Shown here: positions 4,647 to 32,644 of the stretch, piece by piece
Layout of the letters: each line of letters begins with the position of its first letter
Position numbering within the stretch: position 1 is the stretch's first letter
DNA from: a virus
DNA length: 64,000 nt
IMG/VR virus record: IMGVR_UViG_3300017917_000601
Span: 12,935 to 76,934 of that record
Reading direction: 5' to 3' (one strand)
Notes under the pieces: model-generated
What the model was told of the DNA's origin: nothing
Databases searched by the model: none
What the model saw: the letters and a program-made list of their open reading frames with translations, nothing else
Program-made: the position numbers and the translations under genes

Positions 4647-4656
4647 ACTATATTTA

Positions 4657-6311: not shown

Positions 6312-6836
6312 TTATCTAGACTTAACTTCTTGGTAAAGATTAGAAAGATGTGCAACTAAACTTTCGCTAACACCTGGTTGCATCGGGTTTCCGCCACCGT
6401 TTACTTTTTCAGCTTCTGCGCCTTTGCTTGCTAAGTCGTCGCCGGTTGGTGTTACTGCATCTAAACCTGCTACAGCTTCTTCTGGTTCGTTAGCATATTC
6501 TTCCATGCCGATAACCATTGCTTTGTCAGCATCTCCGCCGCCTTGTTCAATATTCTTAAGAATAGCCATTAGGTCCCGGATGCCGCCGGCGCCGCTGCCA
6601 TTCATGCTAACATTCATAGTTACTGAATCTTGTTGTCTTGGAGCTGACATACCGGCCATAGGGCTCATCATTCCGCCACATTCTTCAACCTCTGTGTCCA
6701 TCAACGGTTGATCAGTAGTTGACATTGTTCCGCCTTCATCCATATCATCGTCAGAATCTTTTTTAGTATAAGAATCTGATGATTCTAGATTTTCATCTAG
6801 TGCGGCAATTTTTTTGTATAAATCTTGGAAGTTCAT
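6312..6836 (-). CDS. Acidic hypothetical protein (possible prohead core/internal protein)
   Basis: 174-aa ORF, Asp/Glu/Met-rich, in the late operon with an RBS. Confidence 0.6.
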   Translation of the reverse strand: MNFQDLYKKIAALDENLESSDSYTKKDSDDDMDEGGTMSTTDQPLMDTEVEECGGMMSPMAGMSAPRQQDSVTMNVSMNGSGAGGIRDLMAILKNIEQGGGDADKAMVIGMEEYANEPEEAVAGLDAVTPTGDDLASKGAEAEKVNGGGNPMQPGVSESLVAHLSNLYQEVKSR

Positions 6837-6841
6837 AATTT

Positions 6842-7375
6842 TTATCCTTTGGCTACAGGAGCCTTATCTGCTAAGAGTTGATCATTAACTCCCTTGTATT
6901 GCTCGCCGCCATGTTTAATCTTGTTTAGGTCTTTTAATAAGCTCATGACTCTTTTTTCGCCTACTGCTTTTTGACCTTCTGCATTTGTTTCGTATTCCTT
7001 CATTAGAAGAGCTTCACCTGACTTTTCATCGTGCTGGTGATTTAAAACTTCTTCTGCTTCTTCCATTGGTGTGCGTACTTTAACGCAATCTAAACTGCAA
7101 CCACACTTCTCAGCAATTAAAGCGCGAACAGTCTGTGAATTAGTTGGGTATGCTGTGCAAACATCAAATATAGTTACGTTTGTATTTTTAATTGTTGGAA
7201 AATCTGAATGTGTTTCTGCAATAGGCAAACGCTTACCAGCAGAGCATTTTTCTACTTTGTATTGAGATAGCGCCATTTTAATTTTGTCGCCAGCTTTTTC
7301 GTAGTCTCCTGCAAGTTTAACTTTAAACTCGTAGACTTTCTTACTTTCTGTTAGATATTCCTTAAATGTTTTCAT
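6842..7375 (-). CDS. Hypothetical protein with a T4 capsid-targeting-sequence-like N-terminus
   Basis: Start MKTFKEYLTES; CAGGA RBS and TAAATA upstream favour ATG 7375. Confidence 0.65.
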   Translation of the reverse strand: MKTFKEYLTESKKVYEFKVKLAGDYEKAGDKIKMALSQYKVEKCSAGKRLPIAETHSDFPTIKNTNVTIFDVCTAYPTNSQTVRALIAEKCGCSLDCVKVRTPMEEAEEVLNHQHDEKSGEALLMKEYETNAEGQKAVGEKRVMSLLKDLNKIKHGGEQYKGVNDQLLADKAPVAKG

Positions 7376-7392
7376 AGCATAATCCTGATACA

Positions 7393-7887
7393 TTATTTAT
7401 TCATATTTTTAAGTTTCTCAATTAGGCTATTACGATCTGCAATAATATACCCATCTCCATTGAGGTTAATTCCGTTTTCTTCGCTAGTATTTGCATCCTG
7501 GTCTAGCTTTTGCTTCTTAATTTGTAGCTCAATCATCTTTAATTTTTTATCAATTTTAGCTGATTTAGCGTCAATGGCATTCTTAAGCATAGTGCCAGCA
7601 ACTTCAAAAATACGAGCACTATAGCGAGCTTCTACGTTCATTCCTAAATCAATTAGGTCATCATACGCATCTGTAGCACGTTGAGCAAGTGAGTCAAACT
7701 CACTATCTGCTAGATCTCCAAGACCTTCTACTTTTGGTAGGGCCGCAGATATTTTATCAAATTCAGAAATATCTCTTAGCAAAGGCTGTGCGTTTGATTT
7801 AGCTTCCTTTTGCTTTTTCTTTTCTTCTGCTTTGATAATTTCTTTACTTGCAGGTAAGTTTAATATTTCTTCAAGTTTCTTAGTCAT
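7393..7887 (-). CDS. Putative terminase small subunit (gp16-like)
   Basis: 164 aa, helical; ARIFEVAGTMLK resembles the R.(Y/F)EV.G..K motif of T4-like gp16; lies near gp17. Confidence 0.5.
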   Translation of the reverse strand: MTKKLEEILNLPASKEIIKAEEKKKQKEAKSNAQPLLRDISEFDKISAALPKVEGLGDLADSEFDSLAQRATDAYDDLIDLGMNVEARYSARIFEVAGTMLKNAIDAKSAKIDKKLKMIELQIKKQKLDQDANTSEENGINLNGDGYIIADRNSLIEKLKNMNK

Positions 7888-7895
7888 AAACGTAC

Positions 7896-8333
7896 TTATC
7901 CGTTTCCATTATGGAACAAATCATTTTCGCTCACAATTCTAAACTTAATTCCCTGTTGTTTGCACCACAAGTTTGCTGCCGCCCACTTTGCTTGGTTTTT
8001 TACAAACTGTGCTTGATTATACTTGTTTTTACCAACACGCTCTAGGATAGCTTGACTTGCAGGTTTAATTTCTATTAACTCAACATGCATTCTGTTATTT
8101 TTATCAACATACTGAATAAAGAAATCAGGCACGTAAATTGTTTGACGCCCGGTTAACGGATCACGGTAAGGTATTTGTACAGCTTCACTTGCCCATTTTT
8201 GTACGCTAGGATTAGTGTCGCAAAATCTCATAAAACTCCATTCCCAGCTACTACGATATGTGGGTACCTTTGTACCTACATACTTTTCTGGGTTGGTCAT
8301 TGTAAACTTACCTTTTGCAAACTTAGTAGCCAT
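7896..8333 (-). CDS. 4: Head completion nuclease (gp4-like, TnsA-type PD-(D/E)xK)
   Basis: YRSSWE..FM..CD, WASE, YVPDF, IEIKP, NQAKW.AA. Confidence 0.9.
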   Translation of the reverse strand: MATKFAKGKFTMTNPEKYVGTKVPTYRSSWEWSFMRFCDTNPSVQKWASEAVQIPYRDPLTGRQTIYVPDFFIQYVDKNNRMHVELIEIKPASQAILERVGKNKYNQAQFVKNQAKWAAANLWCKQQGIKFRIVSENDLFHNGNG

Positions 8334-8698
8334 TACACTAAAATATTTCTACTCTCAAACTCGTTACCAGTCTGTTCAATTCTATAGCCTAATAAACTTG
8401 TATTTTCTCTATAGGCATTTAAGACTTGTGCAACTACTTGACTGAGTTGAACGTCTGTTAATGATTTTAAAGATTCTACTAGTTGAAAAACATTTACATT
8501 GTCTGCTCTTGCCTGATTTAATAAAACAATTCCTGTGCTTCTAGCACTTTGCAGATCAAACCCTTTGCTAAGGAAAAATCCCACAACTGCATCAATTTGG
8601 TTGCTAGGAAAACTTACTTTAGATTGATAAAATTTATCAAAGAATTCTTTTACTTCTAATGTTGAATCTGAGGCAGTAGACGGTAAATTGCTTGACAT
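8333..8698 (-). CDS. Hypothetical protein
   Basis: 121-aa ORF coupled to its neighbours. Confidence 0.7.
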   Translation of the reverse strand: MSSNLPSTASDSTLEVKEFFDKFYQSKVSFPSNQIDAVVGFFLSKGFDLQSARSTGIVLLNQARADNVNVFQLVESLKSLTDVQLSQVVAQVLNAYRENTSLLGYRIEQTGNEFESRNILV

Positions 8699-9692: not shown

Positions 9693-9739
9693 AATAATAT
9701 TTATTCAAAGAATAAACTGCGTAGTTAATAGATATCTAT

Positions 9740-13927: not shown

Positions 13928-14263
13928 ATGCGTCCTTTATGTAAAACCTGCGGTGAAAGACCCTGTGCTGTAAACTATTATAAGCAAGACAAGATCTTTT
14001 ATCGAACTAAGTGTGATACTTGTGCAAGAGGTTCAACGCCTAAACAACCTCGTTGGGCTCAGCACGGATACCAAAAAAAGAACCAGTGCGATAAATGCGG
14101 TTATAAGAGTAAGTTTATGGAACAATTTAATGTTTTCCACATAGACGGCAATTTAAACAACTGCCGCCTAAGTAATCTTAAGACTGTATGTGCAAACTGT
14201 CAACGTGTGCTTCATCGTGAAGGTGTTCGCTGGAAGCAAGGTGATTTGACACCAGATCTTTAA
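13928..14263 (+). CDS. HNH-like zinc-binding protein
   Basis: Several CxxC pairs; FHIDGNLNNC..SNL..VCANC. Confidence 0.8.
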   Translation: MRPLCKTCGERPCAVNYYKQDKIFYRTKCDTCARGSTPKQPRWAQHGYQKKNQCDKCGYKSKFMEQFNVFHIDGNLNNCRLSNLKTVCANCQRVLHREGVRWKQGDLTPDL

Positions 14264-14949: not shown

Positions 14950-15210
14950 TTATAGTTCAGTTGGCTGTGGCTTGGCCGCTTTTTCAGCTAAAGTTTCAAT
15001 ATCTGCATTTAACACAATATCTTCTTTAGACCCAGAAATCGTTTCGCCGGCTGCTAGCTTGCGTTGTATTTCCTGGGCAACTATTTCTTCAATTGCAATT
15101 CGACATCTTTCATGTACTGCATTATCGATCCAATCTTGAGCTGAGAGAGCAACTGCATGAAGAGCTTTATCTTCTGCATCGCTTAGTACTACTGTATATG
15201 TTTTTGACAT
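14950..15210 (-). CDS. Small fibre-associated hypothetical protein (possible chaperone)
   Basis: 86-aa helical ORF with AGGAG RBS, immediately after the C1q triplet. Confidence 0.65.
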   Translation of the reverse strand: MSKTYTVVLSDAEDKALHAVALSAQDWIDNAVHERCRIAIEEIVAQEIQRKLAAGETISGSKEDIVLNADIETLAEKAAKPQPTEL

Positions 15211-15225
15211 TTTTTAATCTCCTGT

Positions 15226-15753
15226 TTAAGCTAGAAGCCAGCCAGAAAAATGGCCTAGGCCTCCACCCATGTAATAATCGCTTGAATAAGTTGTTTGGTC
15301 TCTGTAAATATATAGCTGAACGTAGTCATTAGCGGCCAAGGTTAAGATGCACGATGCTACCATCTGTTGGTGATAGTTTGTACCAATAGAATAACAATAA
15401 GCATTGCCCCTACCAGTTACTAAAGATCCGTTTTTAATCCAACCCCATTCACCGTTTGTAACTGAGCTAGCACTATTCGACCTGTATAAAACGCTTGCCT
15501 GAAACTCATATATACCTGCAATTGGCGCAGTAAATCTACCGTTTGAAGTATTATATCTAGAATTATTGTTAGATATTGTTGCTGAAAAGGTTACAGCTCC
15601 AATTGATTGGCGTATGCCGCCTTCATAAGCCCACGCCGCCGGTACTTGATTAAAATTTACGTATCCGTTAGCATCTTGAGTTATTCCAGTCGACCCTGTA
15701 TTAGCAATCGTTGTTGCTCCTGTTATTGTTGTATTTCCAAGAACTACTGGCAT
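15226..15753 (-). CDS. C1q-domain protein, paralogue 3
   Basis: YNTSNGRFTAPIAGIYEF, L.L.ANDYV, HFSGWLL. Confidence 0.85.
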   Translation of the reverse strand: MPVVLGNTTITGATTIANTGSTGITQDANGYVNFNQVPAAWAYEGGIRQSIGAVTFSATISNNNSRYNTSNGRFTAPIAGIYEFQASVLYRSNSASSVTNGEWGWIKNGSLVTGRGNAYCYSIGTNYHQQMVASCILTLAANDYVQLYIYRDQTTYSSDYYMGGGLGHFSGWLLA

Positions 15754-15757
15754 AGTA

Positions 15758-16291
15758 TTATCCTATTAATTTTCCTTGAAAGTGCCCGAGGCCGCCTCCA
15801 AAATAATAATCAGTGCTTGCTGATATTACGTTACACCGCATATCAACTACGTCGCCTGCCGAAAGACTTAACATGACTGTTGAGAAACAAGGAGTGTGAC
15901 CGTTTGACGACGGATTTACTACATAAACAAATCCTCTAGTACCAATGTTAGATCCATTTAGGGCAAAGTACCATTCACCGTTACCGGTGACGCCGTTTGA
16001 TCTAAACAATAAACTTCCGCAAAACTCATAGATACCCCCTGCGCCAGCGGGAACTGTAAATCTTCCTGTTGATGTATTATATCCGCTACCTCTGTTAATG
16101 TTTACGTTGTTAAAAGGAATTGCAGAGTTTGTAGTTGTTGTTGATGAACCATCATCGCTTCTATAAGCGTAAAAACACACCCTACTAGGGAATGTAACAT
16201 AGCCACTGCCGTCAACATTTAGTCCGGCAGAGCTTGTGCCAGCGATTGCCGAAACTCCTGTAATACTCGATGCTCCAAGTGTAATTGACAT
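15758..16291 (-). CDS. C1q-domain protein, paralogue 2
   Basis: F.AY, IPFNNV.IN.G..YNTSTGRFTVP...GIYEF, LSAGDVV, HFQGKLIG. Confidence 0.85.
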   Translation of the reverse strand: MSITLGASSITGVSAIAGTSSAGLNVDGSGYVTFPSRVCFYAYRSDDGSSTTTTNSAIPFNNVNINRGSGYNTSTGRFTVPAGAGGIYEFCGSLLFRSNGVTGNGEWYFALNGSNIGTRGFVYVVNPSSNGHTPCFSTVMLSLSAGDVVDMRCNVISASTDYYFGGGLGHFQGKLIG

Positions 16292-16294
16292 GTG

Positions 16295-16819
16295 TTATCC
16301 TAATAATTTTCCAGAAAAATGTCCAAGGTTTTCACCATAATAAAAGTCAGTACCAGAAGAAATAGTTATCAAACAAACACTTACATAATCGCCTGCGTTT
16401 AGGTAACGTATTTGCGTCCAATGTGTAGGTATATGTTCACTTGAATAAACTACGTGTGTGTAAGCTAGTCTGCCTTGGTTAACATTATTTACGGCAAAGC
16501 CAACTTCGCCATACCCGCCGCTACTAGAATGGCGTTGCAATACATGAGCATGAAATTGATAGTAGCCTGCTATAGGTGCAGTAAATCTACCAGTGCTAGT
16601 ACTATAATGATTACCCCGATTGACTCTAGTATTGCTAAAAACTAACGCTGTAGTTGTCGTAGTAGTTGATACACCGCCTGAGGAGTACGCATAAAAGCAA
16701 GGAATATATGGTAATCTAGCATACCCAGAACTGTCGATAGTTATTCCAGCATTGCCGGTCCCGGCAATACTAGTTGCACCAGATATAGTATCTGTAGATC
16801 CGTTAATTAACACCGGCAT
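16295..16819 (-). CDS. C1q-domain protein, paralogue 1
   Basis: FYAY, LVFSNT.VN.GNHYSTSTGRFTAPIAGYYQF, YLNAGDYVSV, HFSGKLLG. Confidence 0.85.
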   Translation of the reverse strand: MPVLINGSTDTISGATSIAGTGNAGITIDSSGYARLPYIPCFYAYSSGGVSTTTTTTALVFSNTRVNRGNHYSTSTGRFTAPIAGYYQFHAHVLQRHSSSGGYGEVGFAVNNVNQGRLAYTHVVYSSEHIPTHWTQIRYLNAGDYVSVCLITISSGTDFYYGENLGHFSGKLLG

Positions 16820-19800
16820 TAGATTTTTCCTTTAAGATCATCAATTTGCTTTTGTTGTTCTTTAATTGCTTCAACTAGTAAAGCAACGGTGTTTGCATAC
16901 GCAAGAGATTTAATACCATTTTCATCTGTTACTACTAATTCAGGAATAATTGCTTCAACTTCTTGAGCAATCATACCCATTTCTCTATTACCGTTTGAAA
17001 TACGATTATACATTACACCTCGAAGAGCAAGTGCTTTTTCTAAAGCGTTTTCTATAGTAGAAACGTTTGTTTTTAGTGTCGCATCAGAGTTTGATGTTAT
17101 TGTTCCGGTGGCTGAGATGTTACCTTCAACAGTTATACCTGCCTTAAATGTAGCAACTCTAGTATTAGCAACTTCTAACCACGAGTTCATGCTTCCGTTA
17201 GTAGTGGCTGTTCTAGCAAAATACAATATACCGTTGCCAGTGGCCATGCCCATTGATGCATAAGTTGTAGTATCAGCTTTAATGCTAATACACGCTGTAC
17301 TTAAAGACCACCCCGAAGTTCCATCTGACGCTTGGTGACCTAAAAATGCTCCGTTTGCGGCATCTTTAAGAACCACTGATTGGTTAGCTGTTGCATAATA
17401 AGCACCGCCACTTACTAGGTTAGTAACAGATAAAGATCCTAAAGTGCCAACACTGGTTAGACTTGAACTTGTAACACCACTTCCTAAAGCAGTAGCACTT
17501 AAGACCGTTGTGTTATTAATTCTAAATGTTTTTCCAGTAGCAATACTTAGATCGTTATTAATTGTAGTTGTACCAGTTCCTGCGCCAATGCTAATTGCAG
17601 TGCCGGCGCCAAATGCGTTAACTGTTGTAGCGTTAGTATTAACAATATTAACAGTAGTTGAGCTAGAATTAACAGTTAAGTCGCCACCTCTAAATTCTAA
17701 GTCGCCTGCAACGACAGCATTGTTATTAATTGTAGTTGTACCAGTTCCTGCACCAATTGCAACGGCTGTAGCCGCACCACCAATATTTAAACCAGTGGCA
17801 TTAGTGTTAAACAGCGGCACTGTACCAGTTTGTGAAGTAGTAATGCCGCCGCTTCCATTGGCGGCTACAGTTCCGCTAACTGTTAAACTGGTCAATGTGC
17901 CAACACTTGTTAGGCTCGATGCCGTAACGCCGCTTCCTAATGTTGTAGCATTAAGAACACTAGTTCCGTCGACTAGATAACCAAAGGTACTAGCAACTCC
18001 AATGTTTTGATTTGCTGTAAATGCGTTAGTTGCATCGACCCAGTTAAAAGTTTTATTACCGTCGCCTGATTCAACAGTAATACCTGATCCGTCGGCGGCA
18101 GCATCGTTTATTGCTCCGCTACCTAACACAATATTTTTGTCGTCAACAGTTAATGTTGTTGAGTTAATAGTTGTTGTAGTTCCGTCGACTTGCAAATTAC
18201 CTTTAATTTGTACAGTTCCAGTATCATTACCTTCAGCCGCTGGATCAAGAATCAATGTGCTTGGGCCAATAACTTTATTAACATAAATTTTGTCATAAAG
18301 AATACTTGAAGTACCTAGTGTATAGAGATTGGTAACACTAGGAACAATGTTAGAACTAACTTGTGTAAAATAAGTTTTAACAGCTTGCTCAGTTGGAACT
18401 GCTAAATTACTGTTACCGCTTAAAGTTGCATCTGCAGAGAACTCGTTAATTTGTTCACCTAACTGAGCACCAATACTACCAAGTCTTAAACTTGTAAGAC
18501 CAGATAAGTCGAACGCACTAGCATTAAGTGTTGCTCTACCAGTAGCTTGGTCAACTTTAAAGTATTCGCCAACTCTGAAGTTACCGTCTTGGTCAGTACT
18601 TACATAGAATACACGAGCTGGGAACAGTTCAATAACTTCATTGCCTTGGCTAGCCGCCTGGAAAGGAATTCCTGGATAGTTAGTAGTTGCTACGCCACCT
18701 GTACCAATACTTAAGAAGTCGTGCCCAGTTAATCGAATATTGGAATAATCATATCTAATTTTGACACTAGTTCCGTCAACGCTTGGGATTGACTTTTCAC
18801 CAGCTAGTACAATAGTTGTAACACTGCTACTGTTAGTCCAGCCGCTTACGCTTTGAATAACGTACGTGTTTGTATCACCGGTTGTAAATTCAATACTGCC
18901 GCCTGGACGAGGTTCAACTACAAATCCAGTAGCAATTAAAATAAATCCAGACTGGCCGGTAACTCCGCCTGTGGCAATTGCCGCAGATACTCCAAGACCG
19001 TTGCTAATAGTTTCACCAGCTGTAAATGGGCCACCGCTAGTTACTTTATAGTATATTTTTCTAGCCGAAGGTTGAACATTAGTAACAACCGCAACTGCTC
19101 CACTAGATTGCCCTGTAATGGTGTTGCCGACACTAAAACTTCCACCAGTTAAGCTGATTGCAGTGTATTCTAACATGTCTCCGTATAGAGTACCGTTTAA
19201 GGTTGTTTCAGTTAAGTTTGTACCAGATGCTAATACTCCGTATGTTCCGTAACTGTTGTTACCGTTAAGTGCGCGAATCTTTCCGCCTCTTGTTGCCGCA
19301 TAACCTGTATGACAGAAATATGTAAAGCAACTAACAATTTCGCTCTTGGCATTGTCTTTAACCCAGAATCCAACACCGCCGTCTAATATAACAGTGTATC
19401 CATGGAATACCATAGATTTTAATCCAGTTGCATGTACGCTTCCGTCTAATAATGCCCCAACAGATCCGGCAGATTTAGCACTACATTCAATAACGTATGG
19501 CGACTTTGTAGCGATCGGTGTTAACGGATCAAATGCAACATAAACTCCGCCGATAGTAGACTGGTCAATGTTTTGATCGTTTGGTGCGTAAGGCACATAA
19601 CCAGTTAGTCCTTCAAACAACATCTTATTAAGAAGGGCACCATCGCCTAGTCTCCACATTGTTTGTTGCTCATATCCTGGTGCGGCTTTAACTGTTGTAG
19701 TTCTTTGGTTGTCTCCTACAACAGCAACAAAACTAGGAACTGTAATAGGTAATTGTTCTAGATAAACACCTGATGCAACATAAATTGTTGCAGGTCCAAC

Positions 19801-20223
19801 TGCTTGAGTACAGGCATGTTTAATTGTAGAGAATGCAGTTCCCCAAGACAATCCACTGTTAGCATCACTGCCTGTAGGACTTACATAATAAATTTTTGTA
19901 TTGACACCGTTGTCTTGCCAGGTTGGTACTCCGCTAACTACGGTTAACACCTGTCCAGATGACCCAATGGGTAGTCTAGCATCTTGACTAGTTTCTCTAT
20001 AAATTATGTCGCCCTTGGTGGTAGTTACTGTACTACCTTCTACCATTAGTTCAAACTTTGAAGAATTTGTAGCCCAACTAGTTGCACTAGTATGGCCTAC
20101 TATACAAGCATAGCTTGATCCGTTATAGCGAACTACATCGTCTTTGACGTAGGTTTGCCCAAGAGCCCATGCTCCTCTCCAGTTAAATTTAATTTTACCT
20201 AAATTAATTGATGTAATTGCCAT
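16819..20223 (-). CDS. Tail fibre/spike with beta-helix region and C-terminal S74-type self-cleaving chaperone
   Basis: N-terminal LGKIKFNWRGAW; YYVSP.GSD.N.G beta-helix start; SSLTSVGTL repeats; C-terminal NSDATLK...GMIAQEVE...LLVEAIKE. Confidence 0.88.
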   Translation of the reverse strand: MAITSINLGKIKFNWRGAWALGQTYVKDDVVRYNGSSYACIVGHTSATSWATNSSKFELMVEGSTVTTTKGDIIYRETSQDARLPIGSSGQVLTVVSGVPTWQDNGVNTKIYYVSPTGSDANSGLSWGTAFSTIKHACTQAVGPATIYVASGVYLEQLPITVPSFVAVVGDNQRTTTVKAAPGYEQQTMWRLGDGALLNKMLFEGLTGYVPYAPNDQNIDQSTIGGVYVAFDPLTPIATKSPYVIECSAKSAGSVGALLDGSVHATGLKSMVFHGYTVILDGGVGFWVKDNAKSEIVSCFTYFCHTGYAATRGGKIRALNGNNSYGTYGVLASGTNLTETTLNGTLYGDMLEYTAISLTGGSFSVGNTITGQSSGAVAVVTNVQPSARKIYYKVTSGGPFTAGETISNGLGVSAAIATGGVTGQSGFILIATGFVVEPRPGGSIEFTTGDTNTYVIQSVSGWTNSSSVTTIVLAGEKSIPSVDGTSVKIRYDYSNIRLTGHDFLSIGTGGVATTNYPGIPFQAASQGNEVIELFPARVFYVSTDQDGNFRVGEYFKVDQATGRATLNASAFDLSGLTSLRLGSIGAQLGEQINEFSADATLSGNSNLAVPTEQAVKTYFTQVSSNIVPSVTNLYTLGTSSILYDKIYVNKVIGPSTLILDPAAEGNDTGTVQIKGNLQVDGTTTTINSTTLTVDDKNIVLGSGAINDAAADGSGITVESGDGNKTFNWVDATNAFTANQNIGVASTFGYLVDGTSVLNATTLGSGVTASSLTSVGTLTSLTVSGTVAANGSGGITTSQTGTVPLFNTNATGLNIGGAATAVAIGAGTGTTTINNNAVVAGDLEFRGGDLTVNSSSTTVNIVNTNATTVNAFGAGTAISIGAGTGTTTINNDLSIATGKTFRINNTTVLSATALGSGVTSSSLTSVGTLGSLSVTNLVSGGAYYATANQSVVLKDAANGAFLGHQASDGTSGWSLSTACISIKADTTTYASMGMATGNGILYFARTATTNGSMNSWLEVANTRVATFKAGITVEGNISATGTITSNSDATLKTNVSTIENALEKALALRGVMYNRISNGNREMGMIAQEVEAIIPELVVTDENGIKSLAYANTVALLVEAIKEQQKQIDDLKGKI

Positions 20224-25496: not shown

Positions 25497-26282
25497 ATGT
25501 TTTTTAAAAAATCTACAATATACCTAGACTGTTATACAACCCAAACACATGTTTATGATCTATTCAAAATTGAATCGGCCAAAAAACACGTTCCTGATTG
25601 GTTTAGGGAGTTGCCTAACACGTTTGACGACCCTCGTTCGATAATTCCAATACCTACTGCAAAAACTTGCTCAGGTATTGCTAGTTTTTTTAGAACTGGA
25701 TTTATTATTCCATTATGGTCTGATGCTAAACTAGGTTATGCTCCTATACCCAACGGTTACACTACTACTATTCAACCAGTTACACAGTTCTCTGATCAAC
25801 TAACAAAGTGTCAGATACACGAACAAAAACAAATTGGCAAGGATTTTATGCCTGATAATCTCTATGCTCATTTTAAAATATTTTCCCCTTGGGTTTTTGA
25901 GTGTAGTGAAAATATCGACTGGCTGTGGTTGCAACCAACATATAACTTTAAAGAACCAGATAGCATAACAGTCTTACCTGGTGTACTAGACTTTAAGTAT
26001 AATTCAAATGTTTTTATTAATTTTAGCATAAGAAAAACCAGCCCGTCTAATTCACCTAACTTACTAAGTTTAGAAGCAGGACAACCGTTAGTTCATTTAG
26101 TTCCAATAACTGATAAAGAAGTTATTGTTAGAAATCACATTGTAACTGTTGACCAATGGAATAAGATTTCTCAAAAAAATAACAGAGTATTCTTTTCTAA
26201 TAATCACAACAAAAAACGAAAACTATTGCAGGAGCAAGAAGTTTTAAAAAGCAAGTGCCCTTTTGGATTTAAAAAATTATGA
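25497..26282 (+). CDS. Conserved-looking phage hypothetical protein (first gene of oxygenase cluster)
   Basis: 261-aa ORF with GAGG RBS; PDWF, T.K.C.G, GFIIPLWSD, K..SPW, PG..DF, AGQPL. Confidence 0.7.
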   Translation: MFFKKSTIYLDCYTTQTHVYDLFKIESAKKHVPDWFRELPNTFDDPRSIIPIPTAKTCSGIASFFRTGFIIPLWSDAKLGYAPIPNGYTTTIQPVTQFSDQLTKCQIHEQKQIGKDFMPDNLYAHFKIFSPWVFECSENIDWLWLQPTYNFKEPDSITVLPGVLDFKYNSNVFINFSIRKTSPSNSPNLLSLEAGQPLVHLVPITDKEVIVRNHIVTVDQWNKISQKNNRVFFSNNHNKKRKLLQEQEVLKSKCPFGFKKL

Positions 26283-26824
26283 TAGCAGACCACGCATTTA
26301 GACCCAACGTTTATACACCTGAAGAGTGTGCAGAAATATGCCGACTCATGGAGGCAAACATCAATGTAGCGATACGAGATTTACCAAGCAAAGACTCAGT
26401 TAAAACTTCTAAAGTCGGCATGGTAGAATTTGGAAAAGTCAAAGATAAATTAGAAAAATTCAAAAATATATGCCTCGACGGTAATAAACATTTATTTGGT
26501 TTTGATCTTTTTCAGTACACAGACCTAGAATATTTGATGTATAATGTCTACGACGTCGGTGGGGAATACAGCTGGCACATTGATGGTAGCCGTGGAGAAA
26601 TTAAAGATATTAAACTAACTGCACTACTTAATGTAAGTACTGAACCATATGAAGGCGGAGAATTAGAAGTATTCTTTAGTTCTAAACCAGAACCCATTAC
26701 CCAATTTAGAGCGCCAGGATCATTTTTTATTTTCCCTAGCTGGATGCCACATCGGGTTACTCCAGTAACTAGTGGCCGTAGAACAACCATTACCTTATTT
26801 TTACAAGGCCCAAATTTTAGATAA
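26279..26824 (+). CDS. 2OG-Fe(II) oxygenase (prolyl-hydroxylase-like)
   Basis: YSWHID (HxD), YEGGEL, FPSWMPHRVTPVTSGRR. Confidence 0.9.
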   Translation: MIADHAFRPNVYTPEECAEICRLMEANINVAIRDLPSKDSVKTSKVGMVEFGKVKDKLEKFKNICLDGNKHLFGFDLFQYTDLEYLMYNVYDVGGEYSWHIDGSRGEIKDIKLTALLNVSTEPYEGGELEVFFSSKPEPITQFRAPGSFFIFPSWMPHRVTPVTSGRRTTITLFLQGPNFR

Positions 26825-26834
26825 AAGGATCAAT

Positions 26835-27428
26835 ATGAATATTCACAGCCTATTTCCACAACCAGTTGCTCAAGTTAATCTTAATAGAAAATTAACTGAA
26901 GAAGAGTACAACTGCATAATGACTCAAGAGTTAAGGCCAGATTTTGTAAATGCTATTAGTAATGATTTTAAAGTATTGGATCGTCCAGAACTAAAACAAA
27001 TCAAAGCGTTTTGTGAGTACTATACAAACATTTTCTTTGAAAAAGTATTTGATCCCATGACAGAGATAAAACCACAGTTAACTCTTAGTTGGGTAAACTA
27101 TAATAAAAAAGGTGATTGGTGTAACGAACACAATCATTCAAATAGCGTTATTAGTGGTGTATTTTATGTACAGACCTACGACAATGATGCTATTATGTTT
27201 CATAATGAACCACAGTTTAGACAGCTATCTTGGTTAAATCGAGAAGACAATCCATGGAACGCTGAAATGGCAATGTTTCCTGCAATCGAAGGCGACCTAT
27301 TGTTGTTCAAATCTGATATGAAGCATCGAGTAGTACCAGTGCAACACGATAAAGTGCGTGTGAGTTTAGCGTTTAATGCATGGATCAGCGGTGATATTGG
27401 TGACGACTTGAGTGCTTTAAAACTCTAA
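26835..27428 (+). CDS. Putative 2OG-Fe(II) oxygenase (TIGR02466-like)
   Basis: LFP.PV, SWVN, HNHSNSVISGVFY, GDLLLF.S...H.V, RVSLAFN; ATG 26835 after AAGGA. Confidence 0.85.
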   Translation: MNIHSLFPQPVAQVNLNRKLTEEEYNCIMTQELRPDFVNAISNDFKVLDRPELKQIKAFCEYYTNIFFEKVFDPMTEIKPQLTLSWVNYNKKGDWCNEHNHSNSVISGVFYVQTYDNDAIMFHNEPQFRQLSWLNREDNPWNAEMAMFPAIEGDLLLFKSDMKHRVVPVQHDKVRVSLAFNAWISGDIGDDLSALKL

Positions 27429-27437
27429 GGATCTATT

Positions 27438-28013
27438 ATGCAGATTTATGAAAATATATTACCTAATGCGCTACTAAGAAAAGTACAAGACGTTGTATTA
27501 CACGACGGAACACCGTGGCAGTTTACAACTACTACTAACCAATCTGCTACTGATAAGTTATACGGATATAGTTGGGGGCATATTGCTTTGGATCAAAACG
27601 GCCCAAAAACTGCGGCAGCTGACGTATTACACACTGCGATTTTAATTGCTTTAGAAAACGCTGAACAACCTGTCAAAGAAATTTATAGAATACGATTAGG
27701 TCTACTAACTGTTACACACGAACGTAGAGTAAACGATCCTCATATAGATATAGATGTTCCGCATAAAACTGGTTTAATCTATCTCAACGAAGCTGACGGC
27801 CCGACTATATTTTATGAAAACAAATATAACACTAGCAGTAGGCTAAAAGGCATGCAATATTTAGAAAAGGTAATAGGTGATAAGTTAAAAATTGCAGAAG
27901 AAGTTGATCCAGTAGTCAATCGAATGGTCATATTTGATGGATTAACTTATCACTCTAGCACTACGCCTACTACTGTTCCAAGGCGTGTTGTGTTAAACTT
28001 TAACTTTAATTAA
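27438..28013 (+). CDS. Putative 2OG-Fe(II) oxygenase
   Basis: PHID (HxD), IYLN..DG.T, NR..IFDG..YHSS, R.VLNFN. Confidence 0.85.
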   Translation: MQIYENILPNALLRKVQDVVLHDGTPWQFTTTTNQSATDKLYGYSWGHIALDQNGPKTAAADVLHTAILIALENAEQPVKEIYRIRLGLLTVTHERRVNDPHIDIDVPHKTGLIYLNEADGPTIFYENKYNTSSRLKGMQYLEKVIGDKLKIAEEVDPVVNRMVIFDGLTYHSSTTPTTVPRRVVLNFNFN

Positions 28014-28488: not shown

Positions 28489-28529
28489 TATAAATAGCAT
28501 TGTACTGCCTTCCCAAATAAAGATAAATA
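28489..28529 (+). promoter_or_regulatory. Tandem late promoter cores for the Cys-Cys-Cys cassette
   Basis: TATAAATA 28489-28496 and GATAAATA 28522-28529. Confidence 0.65.
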
Positions 28530-28557: not shown

Positions 28558-29094
28558 ATGGCATCATTGCAAAGTTCCACAGTTAGCGGAAACATTACAG
28601 CTAGCACCGGTGTTTATAAAGCTGGAGGCAACCAAACCCCATGGTATCGTATTCAGCATTGTGCTGATGCTACTAGCACAAGCATTTGTAATCCAACTTA
28701 TTCATGCGGTTGGTTACATATTAGAACACCGTTACCTGCTACAAACGCGGCTAGCGGTATTGGTTGGAATCCAAACATTGTAGAAGTCGTTGGTTTTCAT
28801 ACATACAGCGGTGAAGTTACTAGCGATTTTAAAGCTATTGTGAATAATAGCGGATACAGTGATAATGCTTGGTACGGGAATCAAATTCGAGCAAATCAAA
28901 GTAACTATAGTAGTATGGTTGTTTATCAGTCATCTAACAACTACGGAGGTCTCAGACGTGTATGCATTGCTGTTCCAAAGATAGGTTGTTGTTGCCAGGG
29001 GTGGATTTGGATACGCTGGTGGAATAACAGTGGCTATCGTGCTGACTTTGCTTGGGGAGTCGGTGCAAATAGTTCGAGCTCCTCAATATTTTAA
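28558..29094 (+). CDS. Cys-Cys-Cys motif protein, paralogue 1 (putative fibre tip)
   Basis: LHIRTPLP, GWNP.I.EVVG.HTYSGE, WYG.Q, GCCCQGWIWIRW shared with the next two ORFs. Confidence 0.75.
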   Translation: MASLQSSTVSGNITASTGVYKAGGNQTPWYRIQHCADATSTSICNPTYSCGWLHIRTPLPATNAASGIGWNPNIVEVVGFHTYSGEVTSDFKAIVNNSGYSDNAWYGNQIRANQSNYSSMVVYQSSNNYGGLRRVCIAVPKIGCCCQGWIWIRWWNNSGYRADFAWGVGANSSSSSIF

Positions 29095-29103
29095 GGATAT
29101 AAA

Positions 29104-29628
29104 ATGGCAAGTTTACAAGGAACGACAGTTAACGGATTACTGACAATAACAGGACAGACTGTTCTTGCAGGGAATTCAAATATTAGCCCATGGGTGCAAT
29201 TAAGCCACTGTCCTACACAATACTCTGTAGCAAATAATAGATTACACGTAAGAACACCGATCCCGGGAAACGCAATGGGTTGGAATCCGTTTATTTTGGA
29301 AGTAGTTGGTTATCATACATATAGCGGTGAAGTTACAGAAGATTTTAAAGCTGTTATGAATGTTAACGGTAGTCAAGGATCTCCTACTGGGTGGTACGGT
29401 AGTCAAATTTTTTCAAATAATGGTACAAACACAGCACCGTTTGTATATCTATCCAACAGTACATACGGTGGTGAACATCGCGTATGTTTTTCAGTAAACA
29501 TGGTTAGCTGTTGTTGTACTGGAAATATTTGGGTAAGATGGTTTAATGGTTCAAGTTATTGGAATAGTTTTGCTTGGGCAACTGCTTCGTCTAGCGATAG
29601 CCAGGCTAGTCCAGTTAAGCAATTTTAA
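29104..29628 (+). CDS. Cys-Cys-Cys motif protein, paralogue 2
   Basis: LHVRTPIP, GWNPFILEVVGYHTYSGE, SCCCTGNIWVRW. Confidence 0.75.
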   Translation: MASLQGTTVNGLLTITGQTVLAGNSNISPWVQLSHCPTQYSVANNRLHVRTPIPGNAMGWNPFILEVVGYHTYSGEVTEDFKAVMNVNGSQGSPTGWYGSQIFSNNGTNTAPFVYLSNSTYGGEHRVCFSVNMVSCCCTGNIWVRWFNGSSYWNSFAWATASSSDSQASPVKQF

Positions 29629-29643
29629 AGAGATAAGTACAAC

Positions 29644-30189
29644 ATGGCAACATTTAACGTAAACACAACAATTAATGGAGACTTTACTAGTTCAACTGCT
29701 ATTTTAGACGGACAAAGTGACATGACTGAGTGGTATCAGCTCAATCATTGTGTTTGTCCAAGTAGTGACGGGACTAGTGACTGTATTGGTAACGGTAGAC
29801 CATATCTGCATGTTAGAACACCAATACCTGCAGACGAGTCTGCAGGTGTAGGTTGGGGGCCTTACATTTTAGAAGTAGTTGGATATCACAGCTACTCAGG
29901 AGAGAGATGGCACGATTTTAAAGCTATTGTAAACACAACCGGTGATGGTACAAATTCTTGGTACGGAAGCCAAGTCCGTGTTAATACTGGTAATGCTAGT
30001 TCTGAACCGTTTGTGTATAGATCTTCAAGCACTTATGGCGGATTTAGACGTATGTGTTTTGCTATTGGTAAAATTAGCTGTTGCTGTACTGGAAACCTAT
30101 GGGTTCGTATTTGGACTAACAGTGGGTTTAGAGCTAGTTTTCCATGGGCTACAGAAACTGCTAATACAAACAGCACACTAAGATTTTAA
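29644..30189 (+). CDS. Cys-Cys-Cys motif protein, paralogue 3
   Basis: LHVRTPIP, GWGPYILEVVGYHSYSGE, SCCCTGNLWVRIW. Confidence 0.75.
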   Translation: MATFNVNTTINGDFTSSTAILDGQSDMTEWYQLNHCVCPSSDGTSDCIGNGRPYLHVRTPIPADESAGVGWGPYILEVVGYHSYSGERWHDFKAIVNTTGDGTNSWYGSQVRVNTGNASSEPFVYRSSSTYGGFRRMCFAIGKISCCCTGNLWVRIWTNSGFRASFPWATETANTNSTLRF

Positions 30190-30201
30190 AGGAAAAAGAT
30201 T

Positions 30202-30600
30202 ATGTATCATTACAGATGGCAAATTGCTAGAGTTGATGGATTTCAGCAACACCCCGAGTTAACATTAGAAAATGTTATTGCTGAAGTATATTGGGAATTA
30301 GAAGTAAGAGACACAAGTGACATGAGTGTTCATTACATTCGTGCAATGACTAAACTTCCAGATCCTACACCAAACGATTTTACTGATTATATTGATTTAA
30401 ATCATACCGATATTTTATCAATGGTATGGTCAGTCGAAGGCGGTAGAGAAGCACTTGAACAGAGAGCTAAACAAGAGCTAGATGAATTAAGAAATCCTGC
30501 TACAAAGATTCAAACATTACCAAAACACTGGTTAGCAGATTGCTGTCCAGATGGTACAAATATTGATTTAGCCGGAGCAGTTAGTTCTTCCGAAGGTTAA
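30202..30600 (+). CDS. Fibre-associated hypothetical protein (possible chaperone)
   Basis: Y.W.I...L.NVI..VYW, P.P.DF..Y.DL....IL..V pattern of small proteins that follow phage fibre genes; C-terminal DCCPDG. Confidence 0.6.
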   Translation: MYHYRWQIARVDGFQQHPELTLENVIAEVYWELEVRDTSDMSVHYIRAMTKLPDPTPNDFTDYIDLNHTDILSMVWSVEGGREALEQRAKQELDELRNPATKIQTLPKHWLADCCPDGTNIDLAGAVSSSEG

Positions 30601-30602
30601 GC

Positions 30603-30830
30603 ATGAGTTTAAAAGATACAGTTACACATTTTAAAGATATCGTTGTAAAAGCTGGTCAAACACTTGACGAAGCAATTGAAGAAAATCGCAAGCAGGGAAA
30701 AATTAAATTAGACATCTGCAAACAATGCGAAAACTTTAATATGTCTACGAGATTTTGTGGAATATGTCATTGCTTTATGCCAGCAAAAACTCGAATACCA
30801 GGAATGAAATGTCCAATTGACAAGTGGTAA
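30603..30830 (+). CDS. Small Cys-rich metal-binding protein
   Basis: ICKQC...FCGICHCFMPAKTR....CPIDKW. Confidence 0.75.
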   Translation: MSLKDTVTHFKDIVVKAGQTLDEAIEENRKQGKIKLDICKQCENFNMSTRFCGICHCFMPAKTRIPGMKCPIDKW

Positions 30831-30831
30831 A

Positions 30832-30856
30832 AAAAAGGGCTCTAAGAGCCCTTTTT
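30832..30856. terminator. Bidirectional intrinsic terminator
   Basis: AAAAAGGGCTC-taa-GAGCCCTTTTT between convergent genes. Confidence 0.85.
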
Positions 30857-30868
30857 ATTCTTTCTAGT

Positions 30869-32290
30869 TTATTTTCTTAAACTATCAATTTCAGCTTTTA
30901 ATGATTTAACAGCTTCGATCAAATAAGCAGTAAGTCTGTTATAACAAACTCCATCTGGCTTACCGTCTTTTAACTGCACCAAGTTGGGTAAAACTTCGTA
31001 AACTTGTTCAGCAATAAGTCCTGCTTCGTTCTTATTATCTGAACCTGCTGTACGATCGTATGTAACACCGTTTAACATTAAAATCTTGTCTAGAGCATCC
31101 ATAATTGGGTTAACATTCTCTTTGTAAGCAATACTTGAGTTTTCAGTAATTGTTCCAGAGAATGTAGCGTTACCGTTATTAGCCAGTGTTAATGCGTTAA
31201 TACCGTTAGTTGACCAAGAGCCGCCAGATGCATTATTAGTTGCATTAACCCAAAATCTTAAAGAACCACCAGTATTAGTATTACCAGCAACGATTTCGTT
31301 GTTACCGTTATTGCCTAATTGTAGTACGTTCCAGCTTAGGCCTGCTGAATAGCTATCGCTACTGTCATATCTTGCCTTAATTGTGTTGCCGCTAGCTACA
31401 GTTAATGCGCCAGCAACACTAGTTGCACCGGTAATTGATGCTCCGCCACTTGCTACTGTTAGGCCGCCAGTGATGTTTGCACCACCAGTACTAACTGTTA
31501 ACTGACCACCAATTGTGCTTGCCGCGCCAGTAAACAAGTTTCCACTAATACCAACGCCGCCAGTGACTACTAACGTGCCAGAGGTAGAATTAGTTGCCGC
31601 GGTTCCTGCAGTAAATGTTGTTGCCGCATTAGATGTTAATGTAGTAAATGCACCAGTGCCGCGTGTGGTAGCACCAATGTTCATACCATTAATGTTACCT
31701 GCGGTTGCTGATGTAATAGTAATTGTACCAGCACCAGTTGTTGTGATACTTTGATTGTTAGTACCAGTGTCTAAGTTAACTGCACCGTTAGCGGCTAAAG
31801 TAGTAAATGCACCAGTGCCGCGTGTAGTAGCACCAATGTTCATTCTATTGATGTTACCAGCAGTTCCTGGGTTAATTGTAACAGTACCAGTTCCAGTTGG
31901 TTGGAAACTAAATGTTGCGTTTGTTCCATTAGCAGTAATATTACCTGTTACGGTTAAGTCTGAAATGTTTGCCGCGCCACCGTTTTGACTTACAATAATA
32001 TAATCAGTTCCATCAGAAGCTAGTGTAATACTAGTTCCTGTACCAACTGTTTGTGTGCTAGTTCCTGATGAGCCGTTGCCGCGAAATACACCACTCGGAG
32101 ATGATAGAGTTATATTACCGCTGGCAGCATTGAAGAAACTTTGAGACACACCGCTAATTAAAGTTGGGTTAGGAACTGTAACTGTATAACTAGTTCCTGT
32201 AAACTTTGTAAAAACACCTTCACCCGGCGTAACTTGTGTAGTTGTCGTAGTGGTCGATGCTGTTTGTAGTACGGTATTATAACGTGCCAT
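30869..32290 (-). CDS. Tail fibre with C-terminal S74-type self-cleaving chaperone
   Basis: Gly/Thr beta repeats; ENSSIAYKENV...GLIAEQV...YLIEAVKSL. Confidence 0.85.
   Translation of the reverse strand: MARYNTVLQTASTTTTTTQVTPGEGVFTKFTGTSYTVTVPNPTLISGVSQSFFNAASGNITLSSPSGVFRGNGSSGTSTQTVGTGTSITLASDGTDYIIVSQNGGAANISDLTVTGNITANGTNATFSFQPTGTGTVTINPGTAGNINRMNIGATTRGTGAFTTLAANGAVNLDTGTNNQSITTTGAGTITITSATAGNINGMNIGATTRGTGAFTTLTSNAATTFTAGTAATNSTSGTLVVTGGVGISGNLFTGAASTIGGQLTVSTGGANITGGLTVASGGASITGATSVAGALTVASGNTIKARYDSSDSYSAGLSWNVLQLGNNGNNEIVAGNTNTGGSLRFWVNATNNASGGSWSTNGINALTLANNGNATFSGTITENSSIAYKENVNPIMDALDKILMLNGVTYDRTAGSDNKNEAGLIAEQVYEVLPNLVQLKDGKPDGVCYNRLTAYLIEAVKSLKAEIDSLRK
31641..31843. repeat. 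44-bp direct repeat inside the fibre gene (31641-31684, 31800-31843; 1 mismatch)
   Basis: Encodes MNIGATTRGTGAFTT twice. Confidence 0.85.
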
Positions 32291-32311
32291 ATCTTATCTC
32301 TCTTTTTTCTA

Positions 32312-32644
32312 TTATGTAGTTGATGTTTCGATTCCGTAAACGTTAACGTTTACGCCGGCACCCGATGACGATACTAGCACATATTTTCCAGCATCTAAAA
32401 CTAGCCCTGTTCTTTCAAATACACCGTTTGGAACAATAGTTGTGCCCCATTCGATGAATTCACTTGAACCAGGTGAACTGCTTGATGTTGATAGTGCTAG
32501 TCTGATTGTCACAGACGAAGCCGATGTATTTGTAAAAGAAACGTTAAACACAGAGTAGTATCCAGCAGGTACAACATAAGCGTTTGTATATGTTGAAATG
32601 CTGCCTGATGATAACTGTGTTGTTCCTAGTCTTCCTGTTGCCAT
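32312..32644 (-). CDS. Small beta-rich virion connector-like protein
   Basis: 110 aa; similar in pattern to 49394-49732 and 59546-59860. Confidence 0.65.
   Translation of the reverse strand: MATGRLGTTQLSSGSISTYTNAYVVPAGYYSVFNVSFTNTSASSVTIRLALSTSSSSPGSSEFIEWGTTIVPNGVFERTGLVLDAGKYVLVSSSGAGVNVNVYGIETSTT

Follow-up and report, generated by a model that had tools for sequence, protein, structure and literature searches.

In a 64,000-nucleotide stretch of viral DNA (positions 12,935 to 76,934 of IMG/VR virus record IMGVR_UViG_3300017917_000601; hereafter, the window), three consecutive paralogous genes encode the proteins W1, W2 and W3, which carry a vicinal Cys-Cys-Cys (CCC) motif. The CCC domain is well supported as the C-terminal head of a tail fibre because it is fused C-terminally to fibre shafts, occurs in a fibre gene context and yields weak but mutually consistent fold matches. 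By sequence comparison, it represents a previously undescribed family with no counterpart in Pfam, PHROG or the PDB. The trio is followed by two open reading frames (ORFs), ORF4 and ORF5, which encode a DUF7936 protein and a DUF6171-like mini-protein, respectively.

In an exhaustive profile search, the CCC domain was found as the last ∼155 residues of the longer proteins P0126, P0127, P0129, P0131, P0132 and P0136. P0131 consists of collagen G-x-y repeats followed by the CCC domain. In P0136, fibre repeats and a baseplate-wedge/fibre connector (phrog_677) precede the CCC domain, and in P0126, P0127 and P0129, the domain is preceded by phrog_9942 fibre repeats. W1–W3 are thus free-standing copies of a domain that also occurs in fused form.

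The AlphaFold2 model of W3, which was generated from a 63-sequence alignment, has a predicted local distance difference test score (pLDDT) of 87.6 and a predicted template-modelling score of 0.83. The modelled chain folds into a nine-strand β-sandwich with ∼25 flexible residues at the N-terminus. In a Foldseek search of the PDB with this model, T4 gp9 and Acinetobacter tailspikes rank at the top, and the structural matches in BFVD are fibre, tail and collagen-repeat proteins. A Foldseek-independent fold search returned tailspike and fibre C-terminal domains and a gp9-like baseplate protein at Z-scores of 5.5–6.5. The closest of these domains (9f4a_LA, 7xy1, 6c72, 5w5p, 6e1r and 1qex) all belong to trimeric tail proteins but share only 6–14% identity with W3 and lack the HC...CCC module by sequence. 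The fold search that had been proposed for the three proteins, and that was run on the W3 model, therefore gives matches that agree on fibre and tailspike C-terminal domains, none of which is strong. An earlier suggestion, made from the DNA letters without database searches (the sequence-only reading), that these proteins form a virion tip is in line with the location of the domain at the C-terminus of fibre proteins and within a fibre cassette, and with a predicted β-sandwich whose best fold matches are the C-terminal domains of tailspikes, fibres and gp9.

The gene context was compared across 5 viral and 24 metagenomic loci. The gene order is almost always a fibre with a Peptidase_S74 C-terminus, three CCC genes, a DUF7936 gene and, usually, a DUF6171 gene, and these genes abut each other on one strand. 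The upstream fibres of the other loci match a 473-residue fibre of the window over its C-terminal ∼105 residues, which correspond to the self-cleaving Peptidase_S74 chaperone. Some of them also match its N-terminal ∼170 residues. A gene for a 110-residue protein and the S74 fibre gene form a block that lies upstream of the trio on the same strand in locus L014 (2207–6911) and that is inverted and located downstream of the trio in the window (28558–32644) and in locus L004. As judged from these matches, the 473-residue fibre is the counterpart of the fibre found directly upstream of the trio in most related loci.

A ∼170-residue N-terminal domain that begins with MARYNT (40–54% identity) is common to the fibres encoded at 30869–32290 of the window, at 3924–6020 and 6341–8359 of locus L013 and at 2626–4674 of L014, and these fibres differ in their C-terminal parts. 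These fibres may thus be built on a shared anchor to which interchangeable distal parts are attached.

Several observations weigh against the assignment of the CCC domain as a fibre head. The structural matches are middling (best Z-score of 6.5; template-modelling (TM) scores of at most 0.55), and the fold assignment is generic. Within the window, the S74 fibre gene is convergent with the trio rather than upstream of it. Moreover, the invariant polar residues R56, E76, Y83, N96, Y123, S125, R134 and R153 (W1 numbering, as below unless stated otherwise) are odd for a receptor-binding surface. They could build a trimer interface or an active site. An enzymatic head, with a Cys/His/Arg/Glu active site on the β-sandwich at the fibre tip that would process a polymer of the host surface in the manner of a Cys-His hydrolase or transferase, would account for the unusually large number of polar residues that are invariant in all three groups of CCC orthologues (these residues together with H54 and H81). 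Depolymerases are also common on fibres, and weak Foldseek rows include β-jelly-roll lyases and glutamic peptidases. However, these lyase and peptidase rows have TM scores of 0.12–0.24 and probabilities below 0.3, and no enzyme family is matched by sequence. C145, the putative nucleophile, co-occurs with C35 throughout, which suggests a structural pairing instead of a solitary catalytic thiol. An enzymatic head is thus considered very improbable. A polysaccharide-lyase (PL7-like) reading of weak Foldseek rows (TM scores of 0.12–0.19) was rejected.

The CCC family is real but small. A word-indexed search of 5.8 billion proteins identified ∼140 clusters related to W1–W3, all of which are unnamed metagenomic clusters of 165–195 residues, and an exhaustive scan with a profile hidden Markov model found only 30 members among 1.84 billion representative proteins. 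The CCC motif is retained in 106 of the 120 homologues among the matches listed and in 151 of 180 distinct family members, so the pattern is not a chance occurrence; its conservation in homologues, on which the sequence-only reading depended, holds. All members come from uncultured phages, and the two sourced from NCBI, P0063 and P0112, bear neither accession nor name. The near-invariant positions are W29, H34, C35, H54, R56, T57, P58, E76, G79, H81, Y83, N96, Y123, S125, Y129, R134, C136, C145, G148, W151, R153 and W166.

Consistent with the first impression that the family could not be recognised, W1–W3 match no Pfam family (E ≤ 1) and no PHROG family apart from one sub-threshold tail row, and a profile search of PDB sequences gave only chance-level rows (E ≥ 0.077). 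None of these three sequence searches revealed a non-structural enzyme family, a match that would have spoken against a structural role. No match was obtained in 50,697 phage records, either for the region by megablast or for W3 and ORF4 by tblastn. The ESM Atlas contains only unnamed viral and bacterial clusters. A search for the CCC pattern in 185,579 species genomes found no relative and hence no hint of the host.

Exactly three CCC genes are present in each of the 16 loci that are complete across the region. When the members are labelled by cassette position on a maximum-likelihood tree, only 3 label changes are required, compared with a mean of 23.3 after shuffling, and none of 200 shuffles reached so low a value. 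Because position labels change so rarely, the three genes represent, as far as the tree can tell, old position-specific orthogroups whose triplication predates the divergence of these phages and whose gene order has been kept. The Cys patterns also differ by chain position. An obligate A/B/C heterotrimer would be expected to leave such a fixed trio with old orthogroups, and with modest confidence W1, W2 and W3 are proposed to assemble in a 1:1:1 ratio as one heterotrimeric head. The fused forms count against this proposal, as they show that one gene can suffice for a working CCC domain, presumably in homotrimeric form.

The same fused forms would fit three homotrimeric tips, in which each paralogue forms its own trimer and the heads are interchangeable or co-displayed, differ in specificity and broaden the host range. 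The chains are only ∼49% identical and differ in their variable loops, and multi-fibre display is common in jumbo phages, with many fibres encoded in the window. Alternative tips, however, should come in varying numbers and undergo turnover, and the copy number of three in all 16 complete loci, the conserved order and the old orthogroups do not fit this expectation. Moreover, chain 2 of the largest subclade lacks the His/Cys module that is retained by the other chains and by the fused forms, a loss that a heterotrimer subunit would tolerate more easily than a stand-alone homotrimer. Separate homotrimeric tips are therefore regarded as unlikely.

The window contains a second cassette that is organised in the same manner around C1q domains. 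Its trio (15226–16819) encodes proteins of 175, 177 and 174 residues that match Pfam C1q with E-values of 2e-8 to 7e-11 and is followed by an 86-residue helical ORF without a Pfam match. Like the CCC trio, the C1q trio comprises three tandem paralogous genes of ∼175 codons, each for a β-sandwich head, and it is placed directly after a fibre with an S74 chaperone, as is the CCC trio in most related loci. The fused relative P0131 also resembles C1q in having a collagen stalk followed by a head. Vertebrate C1q is an example of an obligate A/B/C heterotrimer, and C1q heads bind Ca2+ via acidic residues. C1q differs from the CCC family in lacking its His/Cys module, and the two share no sequence or profile homology: the C1q profile (PF00386) does not match W1–W3 (Pfam, E ≤ 1), and an hhalign comparison of the CCC family profile with the C1q trio of the window gave a probability of 0.6%. 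Heads of the C1q/TNF fold are ten-strand jelly rolls with a trimer axis that runs parallel to the strands. C1q and TNF chains are not among the top fold matches listed for the nine-strand W3 model, for which Z-scores are middling throughout.

The CCC and C1q trios begin alike, with M-[AP]-x-x-L-x-x-[ST]-T-[IV]-x-G-x-x-T, a resemblance that is not significant (hhalign E-value of 0.095). In the fused CCC relatives, the segment that matches this N-terminal peptide is the last fibre-shaft repeat (L.V.GNV.VSG).

A three-gene receptor-binding fibre has been described in the freshwater virophage DSLV2, in which three consecutive paralogous tail proteins, conserved as a trio, form a 1:1:1 heterotrimer as shown by co-expression and pull-down (PMC12724248). 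The DSLV2 proteins consist of 196, 205 and 247 residues and adopt a gp37-tip-like needle fold with a Collar domain (PF07484); no Cys motif is mentioned (PMC12724248). The CCC trio resembles the DSLV2 trio in that three consecutive paralogous tail genes are kept together. The CCC proteins have no Pfam match to the Collar domain, and size, Collar domain and fold rule out the DSLV2 tail proteins as members of the same family. By analogy, the CCC trio would work like a three-chain head of the C1q or DSLV2 type while belonging to neither family, and it is not an iron tip of the gp37 type.

The conserved cysteines of the CCC family behave as pairs. Among the 180 members, C35 and C145 are both present in 158, only one of them is present in 6 and neither in 16; the corresponding numbers for C144 and C146 are 151, 1 and 28. 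C136 varies independently of both pairs, as it is kept where the others are lost and replaced by Ala or Val where the others are kept. Extra loop cysteines likewise come in twos. In the most divergent fusions (P0129, P0132 and P0138), the whole protein contains exactly four cysteines, namely the Cys of the HC motif and the CCC motif. In chain 2 of the largest subclade, only C136 is retained and H34, C35, H81 and C144–C146 are all replaced, whereas chains 1 and 3 of the same subclade keep the CCC motif and carry extra cysteines. As chain 2 of the largest clade has lost the whole His/Cys module, a nine-Cys cluster is, on this comparison, not essential. The proposal that nine clustered cysteines of a trimer form a metal cluster is thus not supported by the family.

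As read from the strand order in the DSSP string of the W3 model, H56, the H82–E87 segment (the H82-YSGE turn) and the loop with the CCC motif share one alternating end of strands 2–8. If C36 touches C147 (W3 numbering), the N-terminal stalk would enter at the opposite end, and the Cys/His module is probably located at the stalk-distal end of the sandwich. H34, C35, H81 and C144–C146 may therefore form one structural module in the loops at the end opposite the stalk, in which C35 would be paired with C145 and C144 with C146. C136 would stand apart from this module as a thiol that is probably buried. For the CCC motif, lipidation or a thioester (CGEQ-like) role was considered and rejected: the residue after CCC is variable (Q, T, V, N or A), and the free-standing forms carry no signal or lipobox.

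Two types of chemistry are considered for this module. A disulfide-type staple, within or between chains, that forms once the virion is in oxic water is given an even chance. The pairwise behaviour of the cysteines, their even counts and the possibly exported relatives suggest this solution; P0131 and P0132 look, by inspection of their sequences, as if they start with signal peptides. A Zn-type Cys/His metal site is a tentative reading to which appreciable but lesser weight is assigned. It is favoured by the C-x-C geometry, in which a disulfide would be under strain, by the loss of both His together with the cysteines and by the reducing conditions of the cytoplasm in which phage proteins fold. 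The pattern of two coupled Cys pairs and one independent Cys fits either chemistry. In addition, the Cys covariation counts are not phylogenetically independent.

A wider version of the metal reading, which places Fe, Zn or Cu at the trimer apex, held by the Cys/His module after loading by the CC-tailed DUF7936 protein and the six-Cys DUF6171 protein, and which may bear on iron-carrying fibres, is judged rather unlikely. In its favour, H34 and H81 are lost along with the cysteines in the chain-2 clade, C-x-C provides good chelating geometry, the cytoplasm is reducing, the CC tail is specific to cassette-linked DUF7936, and ORF5 contains six invariant cysteines. Precedents also exist: in TRAIL, a homotrimer of the TNF family, each chain contributes one Cys to a Zn ion on the trimer axis. 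T4 gp37, T4 gp12 and P2 gpV hold Fe or Zn in their fibre or spike tips, distal tail parts that the bound metal stabilises, which is the basis of the "Ferrojan Horse" idea. By analogy with TRAIL, the end cysteines of a trimeric β-sandwich head could share an axial metal. TRAIL differs in that it has a single Cys per chain, whereas CCC chains have four coupled cysteines and one chain can lose all of them. The sites of gp37, gp12 and gpV are His-based (HxH repeats) and these proteins have no detectable homology to W1–W3, in which no HxH motif is present; HxH occurs in 19 of the 180 family members at no fixed place. Nothing in the family is specific to iron, and the suggested link to iron-carrying fibres finds no specific support. 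The metal-centred reading is further weakened by the lack of conservation of the nine-Cys cluster, by the disulfide-like pairing of the cysteines, extra loop cysteines included, and by the wide distribution of DUF6171 in phages that have no CCC protein and encode it outside fibre modules.

ORF4 belongs to DUF7936 (PF25590; 42.4 bits, cut-off of 27). All 21 distinct DUF7936 copies that are linked to the cassette have its PW..CCPDG tail. The tail is absent from the 2 other copies, which are second, shorter DUF7936 paralogues outside the CCC cassette in loci L029 (6120–6431) and L034 (982–1290). In the ORF4 model (pLDDT of 84.9), a meander of three strands and two helices are accompanied by a disordered tail, on which the CC motif is located. 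Fold matches to SecB, type III secretion system chaperones and LptE are weak (Z-scores of 3.2–5.2). The structural relatives of ORF4 in BFVD likewise belong to DUF7936 and come from cyanophages, including S-TIM5, P-SSM2 and S-N03. The DUF7936 gene of S-TIM5 neighbours a tail-fibre gene, with the two on opposite strands and separated by a tRNA, which gives modest support to a link with fibres. From its gene position rather than its fold, DUF7936 is most likely an assembly chaperone of the fibre head. The notion of a dedicated assembly factor is supported in part: the DUF7936 family also occurs in cyanophages, but the PW..CCPDG tail is restricted to cassette-linked copies and is plausibly a Cys-specific adaptation of the chaperone.

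ORF5 matches phrog_13558 (4.9e-13) and falls just short of PF19668 (26.7 bits, cut-off of 27); its homologue P0151 carries PF19668, and its homologue in S-SCSM2R is annotated as DUF6171. Its six invariant cysteines follow the pattern C-x2-C-x10-C-x2-C-x-C-x11-C, and the fold is probably zinc-ribbon-like. A DUF6171 gene follows DUF7936 in most loci, and some of these genes are shorter. The expected co-occurrence of the 75-residue Cys protein with the CCC trio is thus seen in the metagenomic loci, where it is usually part of the cassette, but it is not exclusive. Seventy-three cultured phages, comprising cyanophages and Stenotrophomonas phages, also carry DUF6171-like genes and lack a CCC protein, and their DUF6171-like genes are located among accessory genes outside fibre cassettes. 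Because of this distribution, ORF5 is not a dedicated metal loader of the CCC family, contrary to the role first assigned to it. No paper that mentions DUF6171 or DUF7936 was found in the literature.

These observations can be combined into an assembly scheme. W1–W3 would form one 1:1:1 heterotrimeric fibre head, and the CC tail of DUF7936 would engage the Cys module of the head during folding. The conserved N-terminal peptide of ∼25 residues (MA.L..TT..G.LT) would dock onto the fibre, possibly at the new C-terminus that is exposed by self-cleavage of the S74 chaperone, and the docked trio would constitute the distal host-recognising tip. An extended scheme, in which the CC-tailed DUF7936 and the six-Cys DUF6171 proteins act as a helper pair that equips the heterotrimeric apex with either a metal centre or a ring of inter-chain disulfides, is quite improbable. 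If true, a virion protein would have its own virus-encoded pathway for thiol relay or metallation. To our knowledge, such virus-encoded pathways have so far been known for poxvirus cytoplasmic disulfide formation and not for phages.

The five genes of the unit are all present on the plus strand as originally described (Table 1), with intergenic gaps of 9, 15, 12 and 2 nucleotides (nt). W2 and W3 are each 49% identical to W1. W29, H34-C35, LH.RTP.P, G.H.YSGE, R134.C136 and CCC-x-G are common to the three proteins, and every motif quoted in the sequence-only reading, including CCC, is found in them. Cys makes up 3.65% of the cassette proteins, compared with 0.58% of the remaining window proteins and 0.1–0.5% of other fibre proteins.

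The promoter cores and terminator attributed to the unit are also present. ATAAATA occurs 10 times in the window, and 8 of the 10 copies are intergenic although intergenic DNA makes up 2.6% of the window. The copies are mostly located 6–62 nt 5′ of structural genes (for example, at 9698, 13916, 21842/21855, 28490, 28523 and 41804). On this positional evidence, ATAAATA is the T4-type late-promoter core used by this jumbo phage. Given the cores 5′ of W1 and the positional bias of the motif in the window, W1–W3 are predicted to be expressed late from one operon.

Table 1. Coordinates of the CCC operon, its neighbours and the second trio cassette in the window
Feature	Position	Strand	Description
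Two T4-type late-promoter-like cores	TATAAATA 28489–28496, GATAAATA 28522–28529	+	62 and 29 nt 5′ of the start codon of W1
W1, chain 1 of the CCC fibre-head family	28558–29094	+	178 residues, 7 Cys, GCCCQG; position-1 orthogroup in the tree
W2, chain 2	29104–29628	+	174 residues, 5 Cys, SCCCTG
W3, chain 3 (modelled chain)	29644–30189	+	181 residues, 7 Cys, SCCCTG
ORF4, DUF7936 protein with disordered C-terminal PW..CCPDG tail	30202–30600	+	132 residues, ...LADCCPDG...
ORF5, DUF6171-like mini-protein	30603–30830	+	75 residues, CKQC...CGICHC...CPIDKW
Bidirectional hairpin terminator	30832–30856	.	11-pair stem with 5 G-C pairs, T-runs on both strands; between convergent ORF5 and fibre gene
Tail fibre with C-terminal Peptidase_S74 intramolecular chaperone	30869–32290	-	473 residues; PF13884 at 40.9 bits (cut-off of 22) over residues 385–438; many PHROG tail-fibre matches
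Small fibre-like protein travelling with the fibre gene	32312–32644	-	110 residues; same order in L004 and L014
Second cassette: fibre, C1q trio and ORF	14950–20223	-	1134-residue fibre (N-terminal CBM_5_12, C-terminal Peptidase_S74), then the trio

The capsid protein of the window is 69–72% identical to those of the jumbo T4-superfamily myoviruses Phosso (469 kb), Vibrio phage 2.275.O (349 kb) and PA5oct (287 kb), and the source phage is therefore, by sequence, an uncultured jumbo T4-superfamily myovirus. In addition to many fibre genes, the window encodes UvsX, a gp32-like single-stranded-DNA-binding protein, the large terminase, sheath and tube proteins and a gp23-type capsid protein. The viral record, a contig of 76.9 kb, is rated ∼20% complete. 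The sample names of related loci suggest a freshwater and estuarine origin.

Immediately upstream of the CCC cassette, a run of genes resembling 2-oxoglutarate–Fe(II) oxygenases (25497–28013, plus strand) is conserved with L004. At 13928–14263 (plus strand), a 111-residue ORF with 10 cysteines (9%) and weak matches to HNH endonucleases is preceded by the sole other copy of TATAAATA in the window.

Fibre tips decide the host range of phages, and for uncultured jumbo phages from freshwater, these heads are largely uncharted. The CCC proteins add a new compact fibre-head family, characterised by an unusually conserved HC...CCC module, a fixed three-gene set and a CC-tailed DUF7936 protein, and this family probably serves host recognition as a new kind of phage part, as opposed to an enzyme or an established carrier of metal. 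Together, the CCC trio, the C1q trio and the DSLV2 heterotrimer indicate that three-gene heterotrimeric tips may be a recurrent design in aquatic viruses. If helper-dependent Cys chemistry proves true, it would constitute a new type of phage virion maturation.

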